A DNA stretch of 64,000 nucleotides, taken from the NCBI GenBank assembly GCA_964537935.1, contig CAZICT010000001.1, positions 70,870-134,869 of the forward strand. The letters run 5' to 3'. This document shows, piece after piece, positions 5,201 through 41,323 of this stretch; the stretch's first letter is position 1, and each line of letters opens with the position of its first letter. The DNA comes from an uncultured Candidatus Saccharibacteria bacterium. Its GTDB lineage: Bacteria > Patescibacteriota > Saccharimonadia > Saccharimonadales > CAZICT01. The translations under genes and the position numbers were made by a program. Under the pieces are notes generated by a model, which was given only the letters and a program-made list of their open reading frames with translations, had not been told where the DNA came from and searched no databases.

Positions 5201-5983
5201 ATGGCTACACAAAAGAAGAAGACAGCACCGAAGAAGAAAGCAGATCAATACGACGATCCTACGCACAACTACCTGCACTACTGGACAGGCAGAGATTACG
5301 AGCATGAGGCTGAACAGCTTGCCATTAAACGATTCTTAAAAGGCAAGCGGTTTAAGCATGCCGTAGATATCGGCGGCGGCTATGGACGCCTCTGTCTGCT
5401 TCTTGAAAAGTACGCACAAAAGGTAACACTTGTCGAACCATCAAAACAGCAGCTAGAAATCGCTAAGGATTTTCTAAAAAATTATCGCCATATAGAACAA
5501 AAGCAAATGCAGGCTGACGATCTGAAATTCAAAGACGGATCGCTTGATCTGGTAACTATGATCAGAGTCATGCATCATTTGCCTGATCCGAGCCCAGAAT
5601 TCAAAGAGCTGAACAGAGTATTGAGTGATGACGGTTATCTTATTTTAGAAATGGCCAATTATGCACATGGCCGGAACCGGCTTAAGCATCTTGTAAAAGG
5701 GAAAAAGCTGCCTAAAGAACCCGTAGATATCCGCTCAGAAGAAAATAAAACCAAAGACGAAATCCCTTTTGTTAACCATAATCCGCACACCGTTATCCGT
5801 CAGTTGGCTCACGCCGGCCTGAAAGTCGAAAAGGTTTTATCGGTATCAAATTTACGTAGCCCCGGTCTTAAGAAGGTAATGCCCAAAGGACTTATGCTGG
5901 CCGTAGAAGGGTTCTTGCAGCCTACGTTAGCTAAATCGTACTTCGGGCCAAGCGTTTTTATGCTCGTCAAAAAAGCCAAATAG
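5201..5983 (+). CDS. Class I SAM-dependent methyltransferase
   Basis: VDIGGGYGRL glycine-rich SAM motif, Methyltransf_11/25-like layout; SD agagga upstream. Confidence 0.7.
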   Translation: MATQKKKTAPKKKADQYDDPTHNYLHYWTGRDYEHEAEQLAIKRFLKGKRFKHAVDIGGGYGRLCLLLEKYAQKVTLVEPSKQQLEIAKDFLKNYRHIEQKQMQADDLKFKDGSLDLVTMIRVMHHLPDPSPEFKELNRVLSDDGYLILEMANYAHGRNRLKHLVKGKKLPKEPVDIRSEENKTKDEIPFVNHNPHTVIRQLAHAGLKVEKVLSVSNLRSPGLKKVMPKGLMLAVEGFLQPTLAKSYFGPSVFMLVKKAK

Positions 5984-6000
5984 TCAGTATACTTGCAGTT

Positions 6001-8037
6001 ATGCGAGGCGACAGTCCGGTTACCGAAATAAGAGGGGTTGGTGAAGCCGTAGCCAAGAAATTTAAAATTCTTGGCATTGAAACAGTTGATGATCTTATAA
6101 ATTACTTTCCGCGTCGCTACGATGATTATTCTGAAGTACAGAATATTAAATCTATCCAGCCTGGGCCGGTTACGATAGAGGCTACCATCAAGCAGGTCGT
6201 CGGTCGTTATGTTCGGCGTGGCTTGCATGTAACCGAGGCTGTGGCTAGCGATGAAACGGGAAGCGTCAAGCTGGTTTGGTTCAACCAGCCGTATCGAGCA
6301 TCAGCTATAAAACGAGATGTTAAATACTATATCTCAGGTGATTTTACTTTCAACAAACAGCGTTTAAGCATCAATAATCCGTCGATGGAGCTGGTGTCTG
6401 ATTTTCCGGTTAGTACCGCGAGAATTGTACCTGTCTACAAAGAAACCAAGGGCCTGAAGTCCGCGGTTATTCGAAAATCCGTTAGCCAATGCCGGCATCA
6501 CATAGACGAATTACCGGAAGTTTTACCTAAGTGGCTGATCAAACAAGAAAAGTTACTCTCATATTCTGATGCTGTTATGGCAATGCATTTCCCCGGTTCT
6601 AAAAAAGAACTGGAGCTTGCAAAACAGCGACTTGGCTTTCAGGAGGTATTTGAAATAACTCTAGCTGCTTTGCTTAATAAGCAGGAATTACTACAAGAAG
6701 TATCGGTTAAGATACCGTTTATCGAAAGTGTAGCTCAAAAATTCGTTGGTCACCTGCCGTTCAAGCTTACCGATGCCCAGCGGAAAGCCATATGGCGCAT
6801 CTATAAGGATATGGAAAAGTCACAACCGATGAACCGCTTAGTTGAGGGTGATGTCGGCTCAGGCAAAACCGTCGTAGCTGCCATGGCTGGAGTTATGGCA
6901 CTGGAACAAGGTTTTCAAGTAGCTTTGATGGCACCGACCGAGCTCCTGGCCAGGCAGCACGCCGAAACAATCCACAATTTGCTTGAGCCGCTTGGCTATG
7001 GCAAATCCGTCGGTTTATTAGTCGGCGGAATGACTACGTCACAAAAAGAAAGGGCCCGCAAGGCGGTTGCTTCGGGTAATATTTCATTCATCATCGGTAC
7101 GCATGCGTTAATTCAAGAAAAAGTTGACATGCATAAGCTGGGGCTGGTGGTAATTGACGAACAACACCGGTTTGGAGTTGAGCAGCGTAAGTCGTTGCAG
7201 GCAAAAGCTGGACATATGCCGCATGTATTGTCGATGACCGCCACGCCGATACCTCGTACTCTAGCGCTTACACTATTCGGGGAACTTGATATATCTGTTA
7301 TTGACACAAAACCTGAAGGCAGAAAACCGATAATCACCAAACTATGCTCTCCTAATTCCCGAAAACAGCTTTATGAGGCCATTGATCTTGATCTGGCGGC
7401 TGGTCGACAGATGTTTGTCGTCTGTCCTTTGATTACTGAATCTTCAGTTATGGACGTCAGATCGGCTGAGAAAGTTTTTGAAGACTTAAGTAAAGGCGCT
7501 TTTAAGCACAGGCGAGTCGGACTTCTCCATGGCAAAATGAAGCCTCAAGATAAGGATAGCGTTATGCAGGAATTTGTCGAAGGTAAGTTGGATATATTGG
7601 TTTCAACCACCGTCATTGAAGTCGGTGTTAATGTGCCGGAGGCTACGGTTATGTTGATAGAGAATGCGGAACGCTTCGGTCTAGCACAAATTCATCAGTT
7701 ACGCGGACGAGTAGGTCGCAGCCAGCATCAGGGCTATTGTTACCTAATGCTTGGCAACAGTCAGCAGCCAAGCCGTCGCTTAAGAGCACTGGAGCAATCG
7801 AGTAATGGCTTTGAATTAGCCGAGCTAGATCTTGAGATTAGGGGACCTGGAGCTATTTACGGTTCAATGCAGCATGGCCAGCTTGACCTTAGAGTAGCGA
7901 CTTTAACCGATACGCTGTTGATTGAGCGTGCTAGAACAGCTGCTCAGACTTTTATAGATAAAGATGAAGATCTGCTACAATATAGCCATATATACGCTAA
8001 TGTCTCGAAGTATCGAGCTGTCACAAATTTAAACTAG
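6001..8037 (+). CDS. recG: ATP-dependent DNA helicase RecG
   Basis: 678 aa; helicase motifs GDVGSGKT, DEQHRFGV, TATPIPRT, QLRGRVGR; N-terminal wedge/OB region. Confidence 0.93.
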   Translation: MRGDSPVTEIRGVGEAVAKKFKILGIETVDDLINYFPRRYDDYSEVQNIKSIQPGPVTIEATIKQVVGRYVRRGLHVTEAVASDETGSVKLVWFNQPYRASAIKRDVKYYISGDFTFNKQRLSINNPSMELVSDFPVSTARIVPVYKETKGLKSAVIRKSVSQCRHHIDELPEVLPKWLIKQEKLLSYSDAVMAMHFPGSKKELELAKQRLGFQEVFEITLAALLNKQELLQEVSVKIPFIESVAQKFVGHLPFKLTDAQRKAIWRIYKDMEKSQPMNRLVEGDVGSGKTVVAAMAGVMALEQGFQVALMAPTELLARQHAETIHNLLEPLGYGKSVGLLVGGMTTSQKERARKAVASGNISFIIGTHALIQEKVDMHKLGLVVIDEQHRFGVEQRKSLQAKAGHMPHVLSMTATPIPRTLALTLFGELDISVIDTKPEGRKPIITKLCSPNSRKQLYEAIDLDLAAGRQMFVVCPLITESSVMDVRSAEKVFEDLSKGAFKHRRVGLLHGKMKPQDKDSVMQEFVEGKLDILVSTTVIEVGVNVPEATVMLIENAERFGLAQIHQLRGRVGRSQHQGYCYLMLGNSQQPSRRLRALEQSSNGFELAELDLEIRGPGAIYGSMQHGQLDLRVATLTDTLLIERARTAAQTFIDKDEDLLQYSHIYANVSKYRAVTNLN

Positions 8038-32152: not shown

Positions 32153-32165
32153 AAATTGCAACATA

Positions 32166-32195
32166 TTGACACTAGTAACTGTTTTGTGCTACTCT
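32166..32195 (+). promoter_or_regulatory. Promoter for rplC-led ribosomal operon
   Basis: TTGACA-N18-TACTCT with TGc extended -10. Confidence 0.6.
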
Positions 32196-32220
32196 TGCGT
32201 GGTATATAAATTTTCCTGTA

Positions 32221-32283
32221 CTTGGTGAGTCGGTCTAAGTCCCTCCTAAACAGAGGTGAAACTAGCGAACACCAAGCATTTTT
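32221..32283 (+). promoter_or_regulatory. Attenuator-like stem-loop with U-tract in the rplC leader
   Basis: cttggtg (32221-27) pairs with caccaag (32270-76), followed by cattttt; internal cctc/gagg helix. Confidence 0.45.
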
Positions 32284-32349
32284 GTGTCAAAACAAGATGA
32301 ATTGGGTATCCAAAACAGGTGGTAATAAAGGGTAGAGGCCTAAATAACT

Positions 32350-34791: not shown

Positions 34792-35067
34792 ATGAGTAGA
34801 TCACTGAAAAAAGGTCCATTCATTGACCCAAAGCTCGCTAAAAAAGTTGACGCACTGGGCAAGGAAGACCGAACCATCATTAAGACCTGGGCGCGCAGTA
34901 GCACAATCAGCCCTGAGTTTGTGGGCCGCACCATTGCTGTTCACAACGGAAAAGTTCACGTTCCGGTGTTTATTACCGAAAACATGGTAGGACACAAACT
35001 AGGAGAGTTTGCGCCGACCCGTAAATTCCGCCGACACGGTGGTAAGCTCGCGAAAGGTGGTAGATAA
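34792..35067 (+). CDS. rpsS: 30S ribosomal protein S19 (uS19)
   Basis: [12 protein letters not shown]..., HNGK motif. Confidence 0.97.
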
Positions 35068-35069
35068 TC

Positions 35070-35468
35070 ATGTCAGTTACCGCAACCGCTAAGAGCGTTC
35101 GTATGAGCCCGCGAAAAGTTGGCGTGGTTGCTGCGCTTGTTCGTGGCCGCAGCGTGGCTGATGCTATTACGATTTTAGAACATACACCTCGCCGAGCCGC
35201 CCTAACCGTAAAGAAAGTCATTGAGAGTGCTAGAGCTAATGCTGAAAATAACCACAACTACAAAGCCGACACACTGCAATTGACCACCATAACGGTTACT
35301 CCGGGTCCCCGTCTTAAGCGTTATCGCCCGGCCGCTCATGGTCGTGCACTTCCGTACCAAAGGCGCACATCTCATATTCATGTAGTAGTTGACGGAGAAG
35401 TCCGAGCTCCTAAGAAGCCGGCAGCTCCCGCAAAGAAAGCTGACGCAAAGAAGGAGGCTAAGAAATGA
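35070..35468 (+). CDS. rplV: 50S ribosomal protein L22 (uL22) with Lys/Ala/Pro-rich C-tail
   Basis: uL22-like core; TGA stop at 35466-68. Confidence 0.95.
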   Translation: MSVTATAKSVRMSPRKVGVVAALVRGRSVADAITILEHTPRRAALTVKKVIESARANAENNHNYKADTLQLTTITVTPGPRLKRYRPAAHGRALPYQRRTSHIHVVVDGEVRAPKKPAAPAKKADAKKEAKK

Positions 35469-35569
35469 ATTTAAGAAAAGACAGCAGCCAGAGTTTGAAT
35501 TCATTTCAAGCCCTGCGCGATGTGAAAAACCGTAGGTTTGTATTTAAGACCGAACGGAGTGAGGTGTAG
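35465..35569 (+). CDS. Candidate 34-aa micro-ORF ([34 protein letters not shown]), paralog of 38368-38484
   Basis: ATG overlaps rplV stop (ATGA); stop 2 nt before rpsC ATG; frame conserved with paralog. Confidence 0.35.
   Translation: MNLRKDSSQSLNSFQALRDVKNRRFVFKTERSEV
35468..35545 (+). repeat. Copy 1 of ~77-nt intergenic repeat (partner 38383-38458)
   Basis: 66/75 identical in the core by manual alignment; hairpins ttgaa-ttcat-ttcaa and aaacc-gta-ggttt. Confidence 0.85.
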
Positions 35570-35571
35570 TT

Positions 35572-36204
35572 ATGGGTCAGAAAGTAAATCCGATTAGCAT
35601 GCGACTCCAGGTTAATAAGAACTGGCGCAGCAAGTGGTTCGCCAATAAGCGCGAGTACGCTAAGTATTTGACGCAAGACCTTGAGGTTCGCCGTTTGATT
35701 AAAAATAAGCTCGGTAAACGTGCAGCTATCAATACTATTGATATCGAACGTTCACCTAACCTTGTTTCAGTAACTATCACGACCGCTAAAGCCGGTGTAG
35801 TCATCGGACGCGGTGGTTCAGGCGCTCAAGAATTAAAAGCGGCCATAGAAAAAATCTATGGTGTACCAACCAGGGTTAACATTGAAGAGATCAAGAAACC
35901 TGAGCTTTATGCCAAGCTGGTTGCTGAAAATATCGCTCATCAACTTGAGCGGCGTATCGCATTTCGTCGAGCAGTAAAATCAGCCGCAGCCGCAACCATG
36001 CGTGCCGGAGCTAAGGGAATCCGTATTGAGGTTGCCGGCCGGCTTGGAGGCGCAGAAATGAGCCGCCGTGAAAAAACCGTCGAAGGTTCCGTGCCGCTGC
36101 ACACACTCCGTGCCGATATCGATTATCATGCCGCACGAGCCAATTACCCAGGCGCTGGCATCATCGGTGTCAAGGTGTGGATCTATAAGGGGGAGGTGAA
36201 GTAA
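35572..36204 (+). CDS. rpsC: 30S ribosomal protein S3 (uS3)
   Basis: [12 protein letters not shown]..., KH domain. Confidence 0.97.
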
Positions 36205-36205
36205 C

Positions 36206-36619
36206 ATGTTGATGCCTAACCGAACTAAGCACCGCAAGGTGTTCAAAGGAAGAGTACGCGGACCGGCCACCAAGGGTAACTATATCGCCTTCGGGCAATA
36301 CGCCCTCCAAAGCCAAGGCCATGAACGTATTACTTCCCGTCAAATTGAGTCAGCCCGTCAGGCAATGACCCGCTACATTAAGCGAGGTGGTAAAATTTGG
36401 ATCCGCATTTTCCCTCATACACCTGTAACCCGCAAGGCACTTGGTACGAAGATGGGGAGCGGTAAAGGAAATCCGGAATTTTTTGCAGCCAAAGTAAGAC
36501 CCGGAACTATCCTGTTCGAGATGCAAGGAGTGAGCGAAGAAGTAGCCCGTGAAGCAATGCGACTGGCTGCCCACAAACTGCCTGTGAAGACTAAGTTTTT
36601 AGTGAAGGAGGAGGCGTAA
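36206..36619 (+). CDS. rplP: 50S ribosomal protein L16 (uL16)
   Basis: [16 protein letters not shown]... Confidence 0.97.
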
Positions 36620-36620
36620 T

Positions 36621-36821
36621 ATGAAAATCGCTGATATCCGTAAATTTTCTACAGCAGAACTGGCAACAGAAAGTTCTAAGCTGCGCGAGGAAATTGCCGA
36701 ACTGAAACGAAGAGTCCACATGGGCGAAACCCAGAATGTGCGTGCAATTCGCAATAAACGTAAAGATTTAGCCCGAATGCTGACCGTGCTAGGTGAGCAG
36801 CTGGCGAAGGAGAACATGTAA
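36621..36821 (+). CDS. rpmC: 50S ribosomal protein L29 (uL29)
   Basis: 66 aa, helical uL29-like; position. Confidence 0.92.
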   Translation: MKIADIRKFSTAELATESSKLREEIAELKRRVHMGETQNVRAIRNKRKDLARMLTVLGEQLAKENM

Positions 36822-37096
36822 TGGCAAAAACGCTATACGGTGTTGTGTCCTCAGACAAGGGCGACAAGACAATTGTCGTTACTGTTTCTACCCGAAAAAC
36901 ACACCGGCTCTATAACAAGCAATACACTGAGGACCATAAATTTATGGCGCATGATGAAAAGAACGAAGCGCAGATTGGCGATAAGGTCGCTATCAGTGAA
37001 ACTAAACCACTCAGTGCTCGTAAGCGCTTTAAGCTCGACCGCATTATTGAGAAAGCGGCTATCCGTCACGTTGAGGACGGGGAGGTAGAAGTGTAA
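36821..37096 (+). CDS. rpsQ: 30S ribosomal protein S17 (uS17)
   Basis: TAATG overlap; [14 protein letters not shown] typical uS17. Confidence 0.95.
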
Positions 37097-37464
37097 TGAT
37101 ACAGCAAGAATCCCGATTAACCGTCTGTGACAACAGTGGTGCAAAAGAAATTTTGTGCATCCGAGTTCTTGGCGGCACACGTAAACGCTATGCGCGTGTC
37201 GGTGATCTGATCACTGCTACGGTAAAAGAGGCGAGTCCGACTGGTGCCGTTAAGAAAAAGTCGGTCGTTAAAGCGGTAGTTGTGCGAAGTCAACGCGAAA
37301 TAAAGCGCAAAGACGGATCGACTATCAAATTTGATGATAACGCAGCCGTAATTGTCGGCGACGACAAAAATCCACGCGCAACCCGTATTTTTGGCCCTGT
37401 TCCCCGTGAATTGCGCGATTTAGGTTACACAAAAATTGTGAGCTTAGCTCCGGAGGTACTCTAA
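37096..37464 (+). CDS. rplN: 50S ribosomal protein L14 (uL14)
   Basis: [18 protein letters not shown]... Confidence 0.97.
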
Positions 37465-37793
37465 TGAATACCGTATATAAGATACGATTGCAAAAGGGTG
37501 ACACCGTACAGGTCCTATCCGGTAAGTACAAAGGCAAGACCGGTAAGGTTACTGCCGTACACCCGAAAGAGAATAAAGTAACGGTTGAAGGTGTAAACAT
37601 CGTTAAAAAGCATGTGAAGCCTAATCGCGAATATCCTCAAGGAACTATTCTTGAGATCACCAAACCCATCTGGGTAAGCAAGGTTGGCATTGTCGAACCG
37701 ACCACCAAGAAGCCGTCACGCATCGCTTATAAAATCGGTAAGGATGGCAAAAAGGTTCGCGTATATGCATCAACCGGGAAGGAAGTTAAGTAA
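37464..37793 (+). CDS. rplX: 50S ribosomal protein L24 (uL24)
   Basis: KGDTVQVLSGKYKGKTGKV KOW motif. Confidence 0.96.
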   Translation: MNTVYKIRLQKGDTVQVLSGKYKGKTGKVTAVHPKENKVTVEGVNIVKKHVKPNREYPQGTILEITKPIWVSKVGIVEPTTKKPSRIAYKIGKDGKKVRVYASTGKEVK

Positions 37794-38368
37794 TGGCTAC
37801 CGCTACTAAGATCACACCAACAGCCCGGTTAAAACATGAGTTTAATGAGAAATATGCTCGTGAACTACAAAAAGAATTGGGGCTTAAAAATATCCAGCAG
37901 GTTCCGCGGCTGGAAAAGATTGTTTTGAACGTAGGACTCGGACGCGCAAAGGACGATAAAAAGATTATCGAAGTTGCAACCAACACTATTACAAAGATTA
38001 CCGGCCAGAAACCAGTCGACACATTCGCCAAAAATTCCATAGCCGGATTTAAGCTACGTGAAGGCAATAAGATCGGTATCAAAGTAACACTGCGAGATGA
38101 GCGGATGTATGAATTTTTAGACCGTTTGATTAATATTGTCCTGCCGCGACTTCGTGACTTTCACGGTGTTAGCAATAAAGCATTCGATAAGTCAGGCAAC
38201 TACAGCATCGGTATTCCCGATCAGTCAGTTTTTCCGGAATTAACTTTCGATGAAACGACAACCAGCCACGGATTGCAAGCGGTACTGGTAGTAGAATGTC
38301 AAGAACAAGCGCATGCCAAGGCATTGTTACAAAAGTTTGGTATGCCATTTGAAAAGGAGGCAAAGTAA
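37793..38368 (+). CDS. rplE: 50S ribosomal protein L5 (uL5)
   Basis: 191 aa uL5-like; TAATG overlaps on both sides. Confidence 0.96.
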   Translation: MATATKITPTARLKHEFNEKYARELQKELGLKNIQQVPRLEKIVLNVGLGRAKDDKKIIEVATNTITKITGQKPVDTFAKNSIAGFKLREGNKIGIKVTLRDERMYEFLDRLINIVLPRLRDFHGVSNKAFDKSGNYSIGIPDQSVFPELTFDETTTSHGLQAVLVVECQEQAHAKALLQKFGMPFEKEAK

Positions 38369-38484
38369 TGTTTGCCGTAAGTAATTTAAGGGAAAAGAGC
38401 AGCCAGAGCTTGAATTCATTTCAAACCCTGCGCGATGAGAAAAACCGCAGGTTTGTTTCATGCTCAGACAAGGAGGCAAAGTAA
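38368..38484 (+). CDS. Candidate 38-aa micro-ORF ([38 protein letters not shown]), paralog of 35465-35569
   Basis: ATG overlaps rplE stop (TAATG) and its stop overlaps the rpsN ATG (TAATG). Confidence 0.35.
38383..38458 (+). repeat. Copy 2 of ~77-nt intergenic repeat (partner 35468-35545)
   Basis: Manual alignment; flanked by 17-nt direct repeat aaggaggcaaagtaatg (38354-70, 38470-86). Confidence 0.85.
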
Positions 38485-38753
38485 TGGCTAAAAAGTCTAT
38501 CGTAGCACGCGACCGTAAGCGCCAGAAAATGATCCAGCGCTACGCCGCAAAGCGAGCAGAACTGAAGGCCCTCGGTGACCGAGAAGGCCTCCATTTACTG
38601 CCGCGAAATTCATCACCAACCCGATGGAAGAATCGTTGTAACGAAACCGGACGTCCGCATGGCTATATGCGTCAATTCGGCTTAAACCGTATTTCTTTCC
38701 GTGAACATGCAAGCAAGGGCGAAATCCCTGGTGTAACAAAGTCAAGCTGGTAA
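38484..38753 (+). CDS. rpsN: 30S ribosomal protein S14 (uS14), 89-aa Cys-poor (non-zinc) form
   Basis: [16 protein letters not shown]...; ORF opens at 38460 but conserved start is 38484 after aaggagg. Confidence 0.94.
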
Positions 38754-38763
38754 AGGAGCAGAT

Positions 38764-39165
38764 ATGTCTACAGTAACAACCGACCCAATAGCTGATATGC
38801 TCTCTCGAATTCGGAACGCAATTGCTGTTCGGAAGTCCGAGGTGTCTTTACCGCACTCAAAAGTCAAGGAAGCGGTAGCCCGACTGCTTAAAGAAAACCA
38901 CATGATCGCTGATGTTACGGTTGAAGAAGCCGTGGTTGGTAAAACGCTTAGGATTGTGGTTAATACCGAAAACACCAACGCCAATATCACTGAGATTAAG
39001 CGCCTAAGTACGCCAGGACGTCGTATGTACAGCAGTGCTGATAAAATTCCAGTAGTTAAGCGTGGTCGCGGAATTGTCATCGTCAGCACCAGCAAAGGCA
39101 TGTTGACCGGACAGGAAGCTAAACGCCTTGGTATTGGCGGCGAATTAATCTGCCAGGTGTATTAA
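38764..39165 (+). CDS. rpsH: 30S ribosomal protein S8 (uS8)
   Basis: DPIADMLSRIRNA typical uS8. Confidence 0.97.
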   Translation: MSTVTTDPIADMLSRIRNAIAVRKSEVSLPHSKVKEAVARLLKENHMIADVTVEEAVVGKTLRIVVNTENTNANITEIKRLSTPGRRMYSSADKIPVVKRGRGIVIVSTSKGMLTGQEAKRLGIGGELICQVY

Positions 39166-39734: not shown

Positions 39735-40091
39735 ATGAATAGACTGAAGCAAACTACAAACAATCTTGCTCGACGAAAACACCGTATCCGTAAGACAGTT
39801 ACCGGAACAACGGAGCGTCCGCGTCTCAGCGTGTACATTAGCAATCAGCATGTTACCGCTCAAATCGTCGATGATAGCAAACAACATACACTGGCCTATG
39901 TTACTACAGTTGGACAGAAGGCGACTGGCGACACGATGACGGCAAAAGCTGTTTGGGTTGGCAAAGAAGTTGCCAAAAAAGCTAAGTCGGCTAAGGTCAA
40001 AAAAGTAGTTTTTGACCGTAACGGCCGATTGTATCATGGTAGAATAAAAGCCCTCGCCGATGCCGCAAGGGAAGGCGGATTGGAGTTTTAA
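39735..40091 (+). CDS. rplR: 50S ribosomal protein L18 (uL18)
   Basis: uL18-like, ...YHGRIKALADAAREGGLEF. Confidence 0.96.
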   Translation: MNRLKQTTNNLARRKHRIRKTVTGTTERPRLSVYISNQHVTAQIVDDSKQHTLAYVTTVGQKATGDTMTAKAVWVGKEVAKKAKSAKVKKVVFDRNGRLYHGRIKALADAAREGGLEF

Positions 40092-40092
40092 T

Positions 40093-40689
40093 ATGGCACA
40101 AGCACAGACAAATCGTAGACGAGCCGAAGCACCGCGTGAAGAAAAGCAGTTCGACGAGCGAGTCGTAAATATTGACCGGGTTGCCCGCGTAGTTAAGGGC
40201 GGACGTCGTTTCCGTTTCCGCGCATTGGTAGTGATCGGCGATCATAAAGGCAAAGTCGGAATCGGAGTTTCTAAAGGAGCCGATGTTACAACTGCAGTTG
40301 CTAAAGCTGTCGATGTAGCTAAGAAAAACATGATCACAATCAGCACCTACAATGACACGATTCCTCATGAGGCACAGGCAAAGGTCGGTGGCGCACAAAT
40401 CTTAGTTAAACCGGCTGCCCAGGGTACCGGTTTGATAGCCGGTGGTGTCGTACGAACCATTTTAGAGGTTGCTGGAATTAGTAACGCACTTTCTAAGTCA
40501 CTTGGTTCAACCAATAAGATAAATACAGCTTACGCAACCATTACAGCACTTCAAAGTATACAACCGGCAAATAAATGGATTACGCGGCAAAGCAAGGAAC
40601 GTACAGATTCAAAGAAATCCACTACGAAAGAACAAGCTAAGCCTGCAGATAAGAAGCCGGTTAAAAAAGCAAAAGCGGAGACTAAGTAA
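40093..40689 (+). CDS. rpsE: 30S ribosomal protein S5 (uS5) with basic C-terminal tail
   Basis: ORF opens at 40060; ATG 40093 follows rplR stop; VVKGGRRFRFRALVVIGD typical. Confidence 0.95.
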   Translation: MAQAQTNRRRAEAPREEKQFDERVVNIDRVARVVKGGRRFRFRALVVIGDHKGKVGIGVSKGADVTTAVAKAVDVAKKNMITISTYNDTIPHEAQAKVGGAQILVKPAAQGTGLIAGGVVRTILEVAGISNALSKSLGSTNKINTAYATITALQSIQPANKWITRQSKERTDSKKSTTKEQAKPADKKPVKKAKAETK

Positions 40690-41159: not shown

Positions 41160-41184
41160 CATATCATGCCTACCAGGGCTACAA

Positions 41185-41217
41185 TAACCGCTCTAACATT
41201 CAGGGCGGTTATTTTTA
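41185..41217 (+). terminator. Rho-independent terminator after rplO
   Basis: ataaccgc-13 nt loop-gcggttat followed by ttttatt. Confidence 0.6.
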
Positions 41218-41323
41218 TTGAATTTTAGTCAAAATATTAATGCGAAAACATCGTTGCTCATGTATACTAGGTAGAAGTTTTATGTTGGAATAATCTCAAA
41301 AAAGAGGGAAAACAGTTTTTGTT

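Follow-up and report, generated by a model that had tools for sequence, protein, structure and literature searches.

We have studied a stretch of 64,000 nt, which we call the window, from an uncultured Candidatus Saccharibacteria bacterium (positions 70,870 to 134,869 of contig CAZICT010000001.1, assembly GCA_964537935.1). It contains the S10/spc cluster of ribosomal protein genes, where the spacers rplV|rpsC and rplE|rpsN harbour two copies of the same element. The genes at both sides code for proteins L22, S3, L5 and S14, as recognised with Pfam. The element has about 80 nt and is made of a purine-rich 5' tail, a variable hairpin (P1) and a conserved hairpin (P2); each copy is crossed by a short open reading frame (ORF) which leads from the upstream gene to the downstream one. 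The original prediction, made from the letters of the window, had described these frames as paralogous micro-ORFs, and had proposed either a small ribosome-associated protein, a regulatory ORF for rpsC and rpsN or a structured RNA repeat. In our opinion the two loci are probably two insertions of a non-coding structured repeat found throughout the Saccharibacteria, which is kept in translationally coupled operons only in the form of a translated bridge ORF. The features of both loci are the following:

35465–35569, + strand: bridge micro-ORF 1 (34 aa), with an ATG which overlaps the stop of rplV (ATGA) and a stop separated by 2 nt from the ATG of rpsC.
35473–35552, + strand: element copy 1, partly decayed; 61.6 bits with model R1; the 5' tail is mutated (AAGAAAAGACAGCAGC).
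35487–35518, + strand: P1 of copy 1, intact; in one pair a U.G wobble takes the place of the C.A mismatch of copy 2.
35520–35546, + strand: P2 of copy 1, with an intact upper stem (AAACC/GGTTT) and a degenerate lower stem.
38354–38370, + strand: left 17-nt duplication AAGGAGGCAAAGTAATG, exact in 17 of 17 positions; it contains the original Shine-Dalgarno sequence (SD), the TAA stop of rplE and the ATG from which the micro-ORF now starts.
38368–38484, + strand: bridge micro-ORF 2 (38 aa), which begins in the stop/start overlap of rplE and ends in that of rpsN.
38388–38470, + strand: element copy 2, canonical, with 5' tail AAGGGAAAAGAGCAGC, P1, linker GCGCG and P2; 87.7 bits with model R1 (E = 5.6e-23); aligned with 124 other copies.
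38402–38433, + strand: P1 of copy 2 (variable hairpin), GC-CAGAGCTTGAA / TTCAAACCCTG-GC, with loop TTCAT and an internal A.C mismatch.
38435–38461, + strand: P2 of copy 2 (conserved hairpin), ATGAGAAAAACC-GCA-GGTTTGTTTCAT.
38470–38486, + strand: right 17-nt duplication, with SD, the micro-ORF stop TAA and the rpsN ATG.

The similarity of the two copies is clear: 66 of 75 positions are identical in an ungapped alignment of 35468–35542 with 38383–38457, and with blastn the identity is 93% over 59 nt (E = 1e-19). A degenerate core of 40 nt has exactly two matches in the window and none in 100 shuffles. No third copy appears in the 64-kb window, either with nhmmer or with the covariance model with filters off. 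The two micro-ORFs exist and their frames are open. Their wiring into the operon is also as it had been described: the first one starts at an ATG overlapping the rplV stop (aaATGA) and ends with a TAG at 35567–35569, just before the rpsC ATG at 35572; the second one starts in a TAATG (38366–38370) and ends in another one (38482–38486). At least nine other TAATG junctions had been mentioned in this cluster: we have counted eight, so that the figure is approximately right. Micro-ORF 1 is annotated as a gene in two public Logan assemblies, and a profile search of public gene calls gives a peptide identical to that of micro-ORF 2 (P0047, in an NCBI contig of 352 kb). An exact-sequence contig look-up of the 38368–38481 peptide gave no gene with that product, unlike the profile search.

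The exact direct duplication of 17 nt which brackets copy 2 had been overlooked. As controls we have paired flanks from different loci of the same class: the 99th percentile of exact matches is 7–11 nt according to the class of context, and for the class of copy 2 it is 10 nt with a maximum of 13 nt, to be compared with the 17 nt observed. Copy 1 has no recognisable flanking duplication. Its P2 has lost three basal pairs, with GTATTTA where the family has GTCTCAT (the alignment shows three non-pairs): pairs of the RNA have disappeared and the ORF has been kept.

Related species show what these junctions look like when they are empty. The window RpsC has at best 89% identity with that of a species representative. 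In related species-level loci the genes at rplV|rpsC overlap or are at most 3 nt apart in 33 out of 37 cases, and rplE|rpsN is tight in 31 out of 33; therefore the ancestral state is a tight junction and the spacers are insertions. According to a profile search, only three of 38 species-level Saccharibacteria loci (loci are designated by L and a number) carry the element in their S10/spc cluster, mostly at other junctions. L006 (CP025011) has a copy at rplC|rplD, with an exact flanking duplication of 21 nt, and a divergent copy at rplX|rplE; L012 has it at rpmC|rpsQ; L015 has it at rplW|rplB, rpsQ|rplN and rplE|rpsN. The covariance model recognises these copies as well, and does not find the element in the other 34 Saccharibacteria loci, nor in 42 loci of other phyla. 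Copies are more alike within a genome than between genomes, as it is found for the two copies of the window and for copies a and b of L015. Exact flanking duplications of 10–44 nt are present in about 13 of 132 copies, and one of their boundaries is often at a start codon, as survival at a stop/start overlap would require. The patchy occupancy and the long exact duplications indicate that the element behaves as a mobile insertion. Judging from the sequences, it appears to be, or to have been, mobile and non-autonomous. In two loci, L144 and L094, the sequence duplicated at the flanks (31 nt and 20 nt) resembles the hairpin of an intrinsic terminator, with a T-run; therefore the element is also inserted between terminators and the promoters which follow them, with duplication of the terminator.

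A simpler origin could be imagined for the window taken alone, namely a one-off duplication or gene conversion between the two junctions, with no wider family, given that the two copies are 88% identical and only 2.9 kb apart. This explanation is already refuted for practical purposes by at least 142 copies found elsewhere, in other genomes and in metagenomes and in unrelated contexts. Metagenomes were scanned for two conserved blocks, GAAAAGAGCAG and GCGATGAGAAAAAC, at a distance of 20–46 nt; the scan gave at least 120 contigs, in which nhmmer detects these 142 or more distinct copies. The counts for each context which we give below are counts among the copies listed.

The largest group is found in tRNA leaders: at least 39 copies lie 2–16 nt upstream of a tRNA gene on the same strand, with 15 different specificities, and only one lies on the opposite strand. 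Upstream of them there is a real promoter or the 3' end of a preceding tRNA, at variable distances, so that the tRNA-linked copies are part of transcribed leaders. Another group of at least 16 copies is associated with 23S rRNA. Ten of them lie within the gene and occupy at least five positions, which correspond to variable helices, unlike the two copies of the window; the other six are upstream of the 5' end, four of them at 6–15 nt. A leader copy, in some cases without P1, is present in four of the five loci which include the 23S 5' end, and the 23S-leader copies may represent the ancestral functional site. At least 24 copies are found in coupled junctions between genes of the same strand, about 20 more occupy positions like those of a 5' untranslated region (UTR), 13–26 nt before a start codon, and about a dozen are antisense next to a gene start, often that of msrA. 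Some copies are truncated by contig ends. We are dealing with an entity at the nucleotide level, present in many transcribed positions which do not code for proteins. The viral contigs scanned with the element pattern gave no match, and we have found no description of this family in the literature on Saccharibacteria or Patescibacteria.

Some details of these contexts may be added. The leader copies found 6–15 nt before the 23S 5' end are those of L088 (3409–3670, minus strand), L123 (1089–1144), L133 (1431–1490) and L200 (1149–1239). L088 has two leader copies, with the element inside the leader/trailer processing stem; in L123 and L133 a GCGAAGC mini-hairpin replaces P1, and a P1-like hairpin is found further upstream. 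The presence of the element in tRNA leaders is by no means general: none of the five tRNA genes of the window carries it, and it is found in only 2 of 39 non-index tRNA genes, i.e. those which were not the reason for fetching their locus. A universal tRNA-leader processing signal is ruled out by these figures. The fetched Saccharibacteria-like contigs also contain matches to other Rfam families: a LOOT RNA in L116 (2664–2783), a group I intron inside the 23S gene of L109 (1796–2054) and a fragment of a group II intron, D1-D4, beside the 16S gene of L179 (1846–1932).

The structure of the element is apparent in the alignment of 125 copies, among which those from metagenomes were fetched with a pattern which fixes 25 conserved bases. 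The consensus is (A)AG-GGAAAAGAGCAGC, followed by P1, GCGCG and P2, the latter with the form AUGAGAAAAACC-GUA-GGUUUGUCUCAU. In these copies 94.5% of the cells of the specified structure are paired, versus 82.4 ± 0.4% in shuffles and 38–51% with slid partners; cells with a double change amount to 307, versus 81 ± 12 in shuffles. In P1 the sequence is free and the pairing is kept: compensatory changes are found in 8 of its 10 pairs (for example columns 18–46 are CG in 70 copies, GC in 31 and AU in 21), and the internal A.C mismatch is retained. P2 has 97% of its cells paired and a nearly invariant sequence; its covarying pairs are AU>UA (52–84) and CG>UA (66–73), together with compensated A/T insertions. 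In the paired columns there are 37 G.U versus 19 A.C, a moderate sign that it is the sense strand which folds. The structured RNA repeat suggested for the window, with hairpins ttgaa-ttcat-ttcaa and aaacc-gya-ggttt, is thus confirmed, since covariation in 125 copies backs both hairpins.

The element has no counterpart in Rfam: no match was found at the gathering score of Rfam 15 in the window, at E ≤ 10 in the region 35000–39000, or at the gathering score in 16 other loci. Known self-cleaving ribozymes, K-turns and C/D motifs were also discarded: cmscan gives no match, and the conserved blocks follow one another in an order which is not compatible with them. We have also looked for a third helix between the 5' tail and the upstream sequence; the best pairings have 4.8–6.2 bp, versus 4.3–5.5 bp in shuffles, so that there is no general P0. 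A promoter within the element was rejected as well: no hexamer similar to a -10 box, with A at -11, is present at its 3' end, and the TTGACN/TATAAT boxes are found upstream at variable distances. There is, on the other hand, a variant sub-family in which P1 becomes a branched two-hairpin domain, such as GCGAGCTTGGTTCGCC-TCTA-GGCGAAC-TCGGC-TTT-GCCGA-CGAGC, with scores of 43–58 bits with model R1. It is carried by L086, L105, L127, L162, L088 (2594–2681), L141, L116 (7693–7788), L006 (8289–8385), L092 and L142 (11016–11109).

We can now consider whether the two micro-ORFs code for a conserved small protein, in which case the 34-aa and 38-aa products would be paralogous functional peptides and the hairpins would be secondary. 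Both frames are open and have SD-ATG starts; in all junction copies the N-terminal part is read in a single frame, as (R)EKSSQS...LRDEKN; and a profile search of public gene calls gives 545 clusters of similar peptides of about 33–43 aa. Against this, tRNA leaders and 23S rRNA harbour at least 55 copies of the same element which are not expected to be translated; an in-frame ATG followed by an open frame is rare there (3 of 39 tRNA-leader copies). The C-terminal third is read in two frames: a difference of 1 nt in the P2 loop leads either to ...NRRFVS... or to ...NRQVCLI..., with 23 and 37 cases respectively when the first 60 database peptides are counted by eye. The two conserved blocks are separated by 29, 30, 31 or 32 nt, and the spacing modulo 3 divides the copies into groups of 63, 41 and 19. 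Even the C-termini KEAK and RRRK are the SD of the next gene read in two frames. Third positions show no excess of variation: the entropies of the three codon positions are 0.30/0.36/0.37 in junction copies and 0.35/0.35/0.37 in tRNA-leader copies. The amino acids of the P1 region change freely together with the compensatory base changes, and antisense copies give unrelated bridge peptides.

It had also been pointed out that the nine differences between the window copies fall in eight codons, four of which have only synonymous third-position changes. The count is correct; the four changes are located in the degenerate 5' tail, in a P1 stem pair, in the P2 loop and in the decayed P2 stem. Neither peptide has a match in Pfam or NCBIfam at E ≤ 1. 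The best 120 of the 545 database matches have 33–64 aa, no Pfam domain and at most the name "hypothetical protein". A lineage-specific ribosome-associated protein is therefore very improbable, and the idea of paralogous peptides is not supported by these results.

An autoregulatory function appears to us still less probable. The element would then mimic a site in rRNA for S3, S14 or a neighbouring protein of the 30S head, and would provide feedback on rpsC and rpsN. It is structured, and both window copies precede genes for neighbouring proteins of the 30S head. However, in other places it precedes rplD, rplB, rpsQ, rplN, rplE, rpsM, rpsD, atpG, jag, rnc, dnaB, tRNAs and 23S rRNA, most relatives do not have it before rpsC and rpsN, and no Rfam leader of ribosomal proteins matches it. 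A specific tie to rpsC and rpsN, as had been suggested, is not supported either: there are copies at atpA|atpG, at yidC|jag, upstream of rnc and at many other junctions of ribosomal protein genes.

What is common to the junction copies is the way in which they are bridged. All 24 copies screened have an ATG on the upstream stop or next to it (TAATG or ATGA), usually preceded by an SD, and a frame which is open through both hairpins. The start offsets go from -5 to +1 with respect to the first base of the ATG, although in 3 of the 24 the upstream ORF could not be assigned; the stop offsets go from -1 to +5 in 23 copies, with one at +20. The distance from the ATG to the core is a multiple of 3 in every case, but this figure is circular, since the ATGs were chosen in that frame, and we give it no weight. 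Two more bridged copies, copy 1 of the window and rplX|rplE of L006, are found beyond the automated screen. At least eight junctions of ribosomal protein genes have bridged copies, among them rplC|D, rplD|W, rplW|B, rplV|rpsC, rpmC|rpsQ, rpsQ|rplN and rplE|rpsN. There are also bridged copies at junctions which we take to be atpA|atpG, yidC|jag, x|rnc and dnaB, with names assigned from recognised motifs without a family search, and at two further ones which we provisionally attribute to genes of the alpha operon.

The same behaviour is found in other sequences. In 38 species there are 41 spacers of at least 30 nt at junctions which are normally tight, and 28 of them are bridged, versus 4.1 expected from shuffles which keep length, start and stop. 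They include unrelated intragenomic repeat families in L005, L029 and L040. Antisense copies of our element next to gene starts are bridged on the strand of the gene in 9 of 15 cases, by an ORF which ends on the ATG of the gene and has an entirely different peptide. Unrelated repeats, in either orientation, persist only if an ORF bridges the stop to the start, which indicates that the hand-over of ribosomes is under strong selection. Since open coupled frames persist across repeats, across strands and in the decayed copy 1, the host probably selects this hand-over and not the peptide. The translational coupling of the micro-ORFs, as stated in the original prediction, holds and can be generalised to other junctions and to other repeat families.

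The individual cases are as follows. The antisense set includes L121, L143, L154, L095, L136 and L096, which adjoin a minus-strand msrA start, and L156, L112, L104 and L141. Several antisense copies have duplications of 12–44 nt of the first codons of the gene, and the antisense P2 provides its own ATG (ATGAGACAAACC). Other repeats are found in L040 at rplW|rplB, rplV|rpsC (about 5889–6001), rplR|rpsE and rplC|rplD, with peptide MQHATCN...HFAYPILPNPATERS; in L029 at rpsS|rplV, rplV|rpsC (5864–6001), rpsC|rplP, rpmC|rpsQ and rpsN|rpsH, with peptide MKRF..HQFLV.SFQFIVSKLQTTNYKLQT; in L005 at rplB|rpsS, rplV|rpsC (5939–6001), rpsN|rpsH, rpsH|rplF and rplR|rpsE; and in L009 at rplV|rpsC and rpsC|rplP. 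The unrelated coupled micro-ORF repeats of these four loci make the colonisation of junctions look like a general trait of the phylum. The window has two other long spacers, rpsJ|rplC (32153–32349, 197 nt) and rplO|secY (41160–41323, 164 nt), neither of them bridged. In most relatives these spacers are also long and unbridged (13 and 18 loci), so they are probably genuine untranslated regions with regulatory or promoter functions. In the ORF list of the window rplR (39735–40091) and rpsE (40060–40689) overlap by 32 nt, at 40060–40091; the true start of rpsE is probably further downstream than its first ATG.

The process which we propose is the following. At a TAATG junction the only viable insertion would be one which duplicates the segment with the SD and the stop/start overlap, as in copy 2. 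The first copy of the junction would end the upstream gene and restart ribosomes on a short ORF which runs through both hairpins; this micro-ORF would end on the second copy of the junction, or next to it, and termination-reinitiation coupling to rpsC or rpsN would be restored. Since it is the bridge ORF that would restore coupling, selection would keep the frame open and its ends coupled, with no influence on the amino acids: the peptide would be a by-product. Copy 1 would be the older one, with its RNA structure and its flanking duplication decayed and its bridge ORF intact.

Several observations do not favour this explanation and have to be weighed. Flanking duplications have a variable length, are absent in most copies and are found in none of the tRNA-leader copies. 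Terminal inverted repeats are lacking, as the alignment shows no complementarity between the 5' end GGGAAAAGAGCAGC and the 3' end GGTTTGTCTCAT. No transposase, reverse transcriptase or other partner is seen in the fetched loci, although whole genomes were not scanned. The predicted accessibility of the SD is 0.42 at junctions with the element and 0.48 at normal ones (p = 0.17); with no difference between them, occlusion of the SD by the hairpins cannot be demonstrated as the reason for translating through the element. Translation of the micro-ORFs is itself predicted from the reading frames. The search pattern forces 25 bases, so that conservation is overestimated and decayed copies are under-sampled. 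Finally, the element almost always has the sense orientation and directly precedes, on the 5' side, the end of a mature RNA or a start codon, with the ratio of 39:1 mentioned above for tRNAs; this bias could indicate a host function in RNA processing or stability, instead of a purely selfish element.

The last point leads to the main rival explanation, which partly overlaps with our own: a leader module with a function for the host (an entry site for RNase, a barrier to 5' exonuclease, or processing and antitermination), native to the pre-23S leader and recruited elsewhere. The two copies of the window would then act on the mRNA segments of rpsC and rpsN, regulating how they are processed or how stable they are, and the ORF would serve only for the passage of ribosomes. 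The tRNA-leader copies at their fixed side and short distance fit this module, as do the copies which in 4 of 5 loci lie just before the 23S 5' end and within the stem for leader/trailer processing, the approximately 20 UTR-like copies, the excess of G.U over A.C, and the nearly invariant tail and P2, although the search pattern is in part responsible for this invariance. The element is present, with a diverged P1, in all the orthologous tRNA-Lys leaders of different genomes. On the other side we find that few tRNA genes carry it when they were not selected for that reason, that in S10/spc it is present in only 4 of 39 lineages, each at different junctions, that about a dozen copies are antisense, and that flanking duplications point to insertion. 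Furthermore, copy 1 has partly lost its structure and the operon has kept its ORF. We find such a host module rather unlikely, and we prefer to consider the two loci as insertions maintained by their bridge ORFs.

A broader interpretation is conceivable, which we put forward only tentatively: the repeat might represent an undescribed class of structured mobile RNA/DNA elements, present in the whole phylum, with an unusual insertion chemistry, a 5' targeting and maybe a role as host module, in genomes which follow a strict rule of no untranslated spacers. The duplications, long and variable (10–44 nt) and unaccompanied by terminal inverted repeats, would reflect that chemistry. The preference for the 5' side of highly expressed RNAs (tRNA, 23S rRNA, ribosomal protein cistrons) might be due to an RNA-mediated or transcription-coupled mechanism. 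Under a strict rule, any repeat family which colonises the ribosomal protein operons of Saccharibacteria would have to evolve a coupled bridge ORF.

As a whole the original prediction finds support in part, for the structured repeat and for the coupling, but not for the paralogous protein. A false lead is thereby removed: the micro-ORFs do not represent new ribosomal micro-proteins, and public databases contain at least 545 similar "hypothetical proteins" which are by-products of the repeat. In their place we define a widespread structured element of Saccharibacteria which has no Rfam entry, which probably explains some short insertions in rRNA genes and which affects the annotation of tRNA leaders, rRNA and operon junctions. 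It also allows translational coupling to be studied in an unusually clean natural experiment, provided by the overlapping-gene operons of these reduced genomes.

Among known repeats the closest analogue is the mycobacterial MIRU. MIRU are often found in tandem arrays of variable number, whereas the junction copies of our element are all single. The only tandem arrangement which we have seen is P0001, a database peptide of 64 aa from a 20-kb JGI contig, with two element copies in a single bridge ORF. The review by Delihas (PMC3184786), which refers to Supply et al. (1997), presents MIRU as intercistronic repeats with small ORFs which overlap the flanking stop and start codons. Both are short repeats inside polycistronic operons, co-transcribed, oriented as the operon and with the same bridge-ORF logic. 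The units of MIRU have 40–100 bp and tetranucleotide direct repeats, and no covarying two-hairpin RNA is described for them (PMC3184786). Our element differs by its strong RNA covariation, by variable duplications of 10–44 nt instead of tetranucleotide direct repeats, by its presence in tRNA leaders and 23S rRNA and by the phylum, which is unrelated.

The RPE of Rickettsia (Ogata et al. 2000, according to PMC10969869) are palindromic elements found as in-frame fusions inside protein genes. They share with our element a small palindromic sequence, a reduced genome and survival in translated sequence by means of an open frame. However, our element forms a separate coupled micro-ORF between genes, and most of its copies are in non-coding RNA leaders. 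None of the copies listed is inside a long conserved ORF, and we see no in-gene fusion, since the best 120 of the 545 peptide matches are stand-alone ORFs. The Correia elements of Neisseria, ERIC of enterobacteria and BOX of pneumococcus are also non-autonomous, form hairpins and are transcribed within operons. They have terminal inverted repeats and short fixed target duplications (TA in the case of Correia), in contrast with our element, which in addition shows a strong sense bias 5' of genes and the bridge-ORF rule. Correia, ERIC and BOX can influence the processing and stability of mRNA (PMC10969869, PMC3184786). Miniature inverted-repeat transposable elements are similar in being small, non-coding and multi-copy, with several per locus possible and the same junctions empty in most relatives; our element lacks their terminal inverted repeats and their fixed short target-site duplication.

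Finally, the ten copies inside 23S genes resemble intervening sequences, as they are found at variable helices. Classical intervening sequences are excised by RNase III, which leaves a fragmented 23S rRNA. According to Tsurumaki et al. (2024, PMC11270868), 64 of the 66 insertions in the rRNA of Saccharibacteria are short, not exceeding 250 bp, contain no intron and are uncharacterised; no family, structure or occurrence outside rRNA is described there for them. Plausibly these short insertions include in part the element which we have described here.

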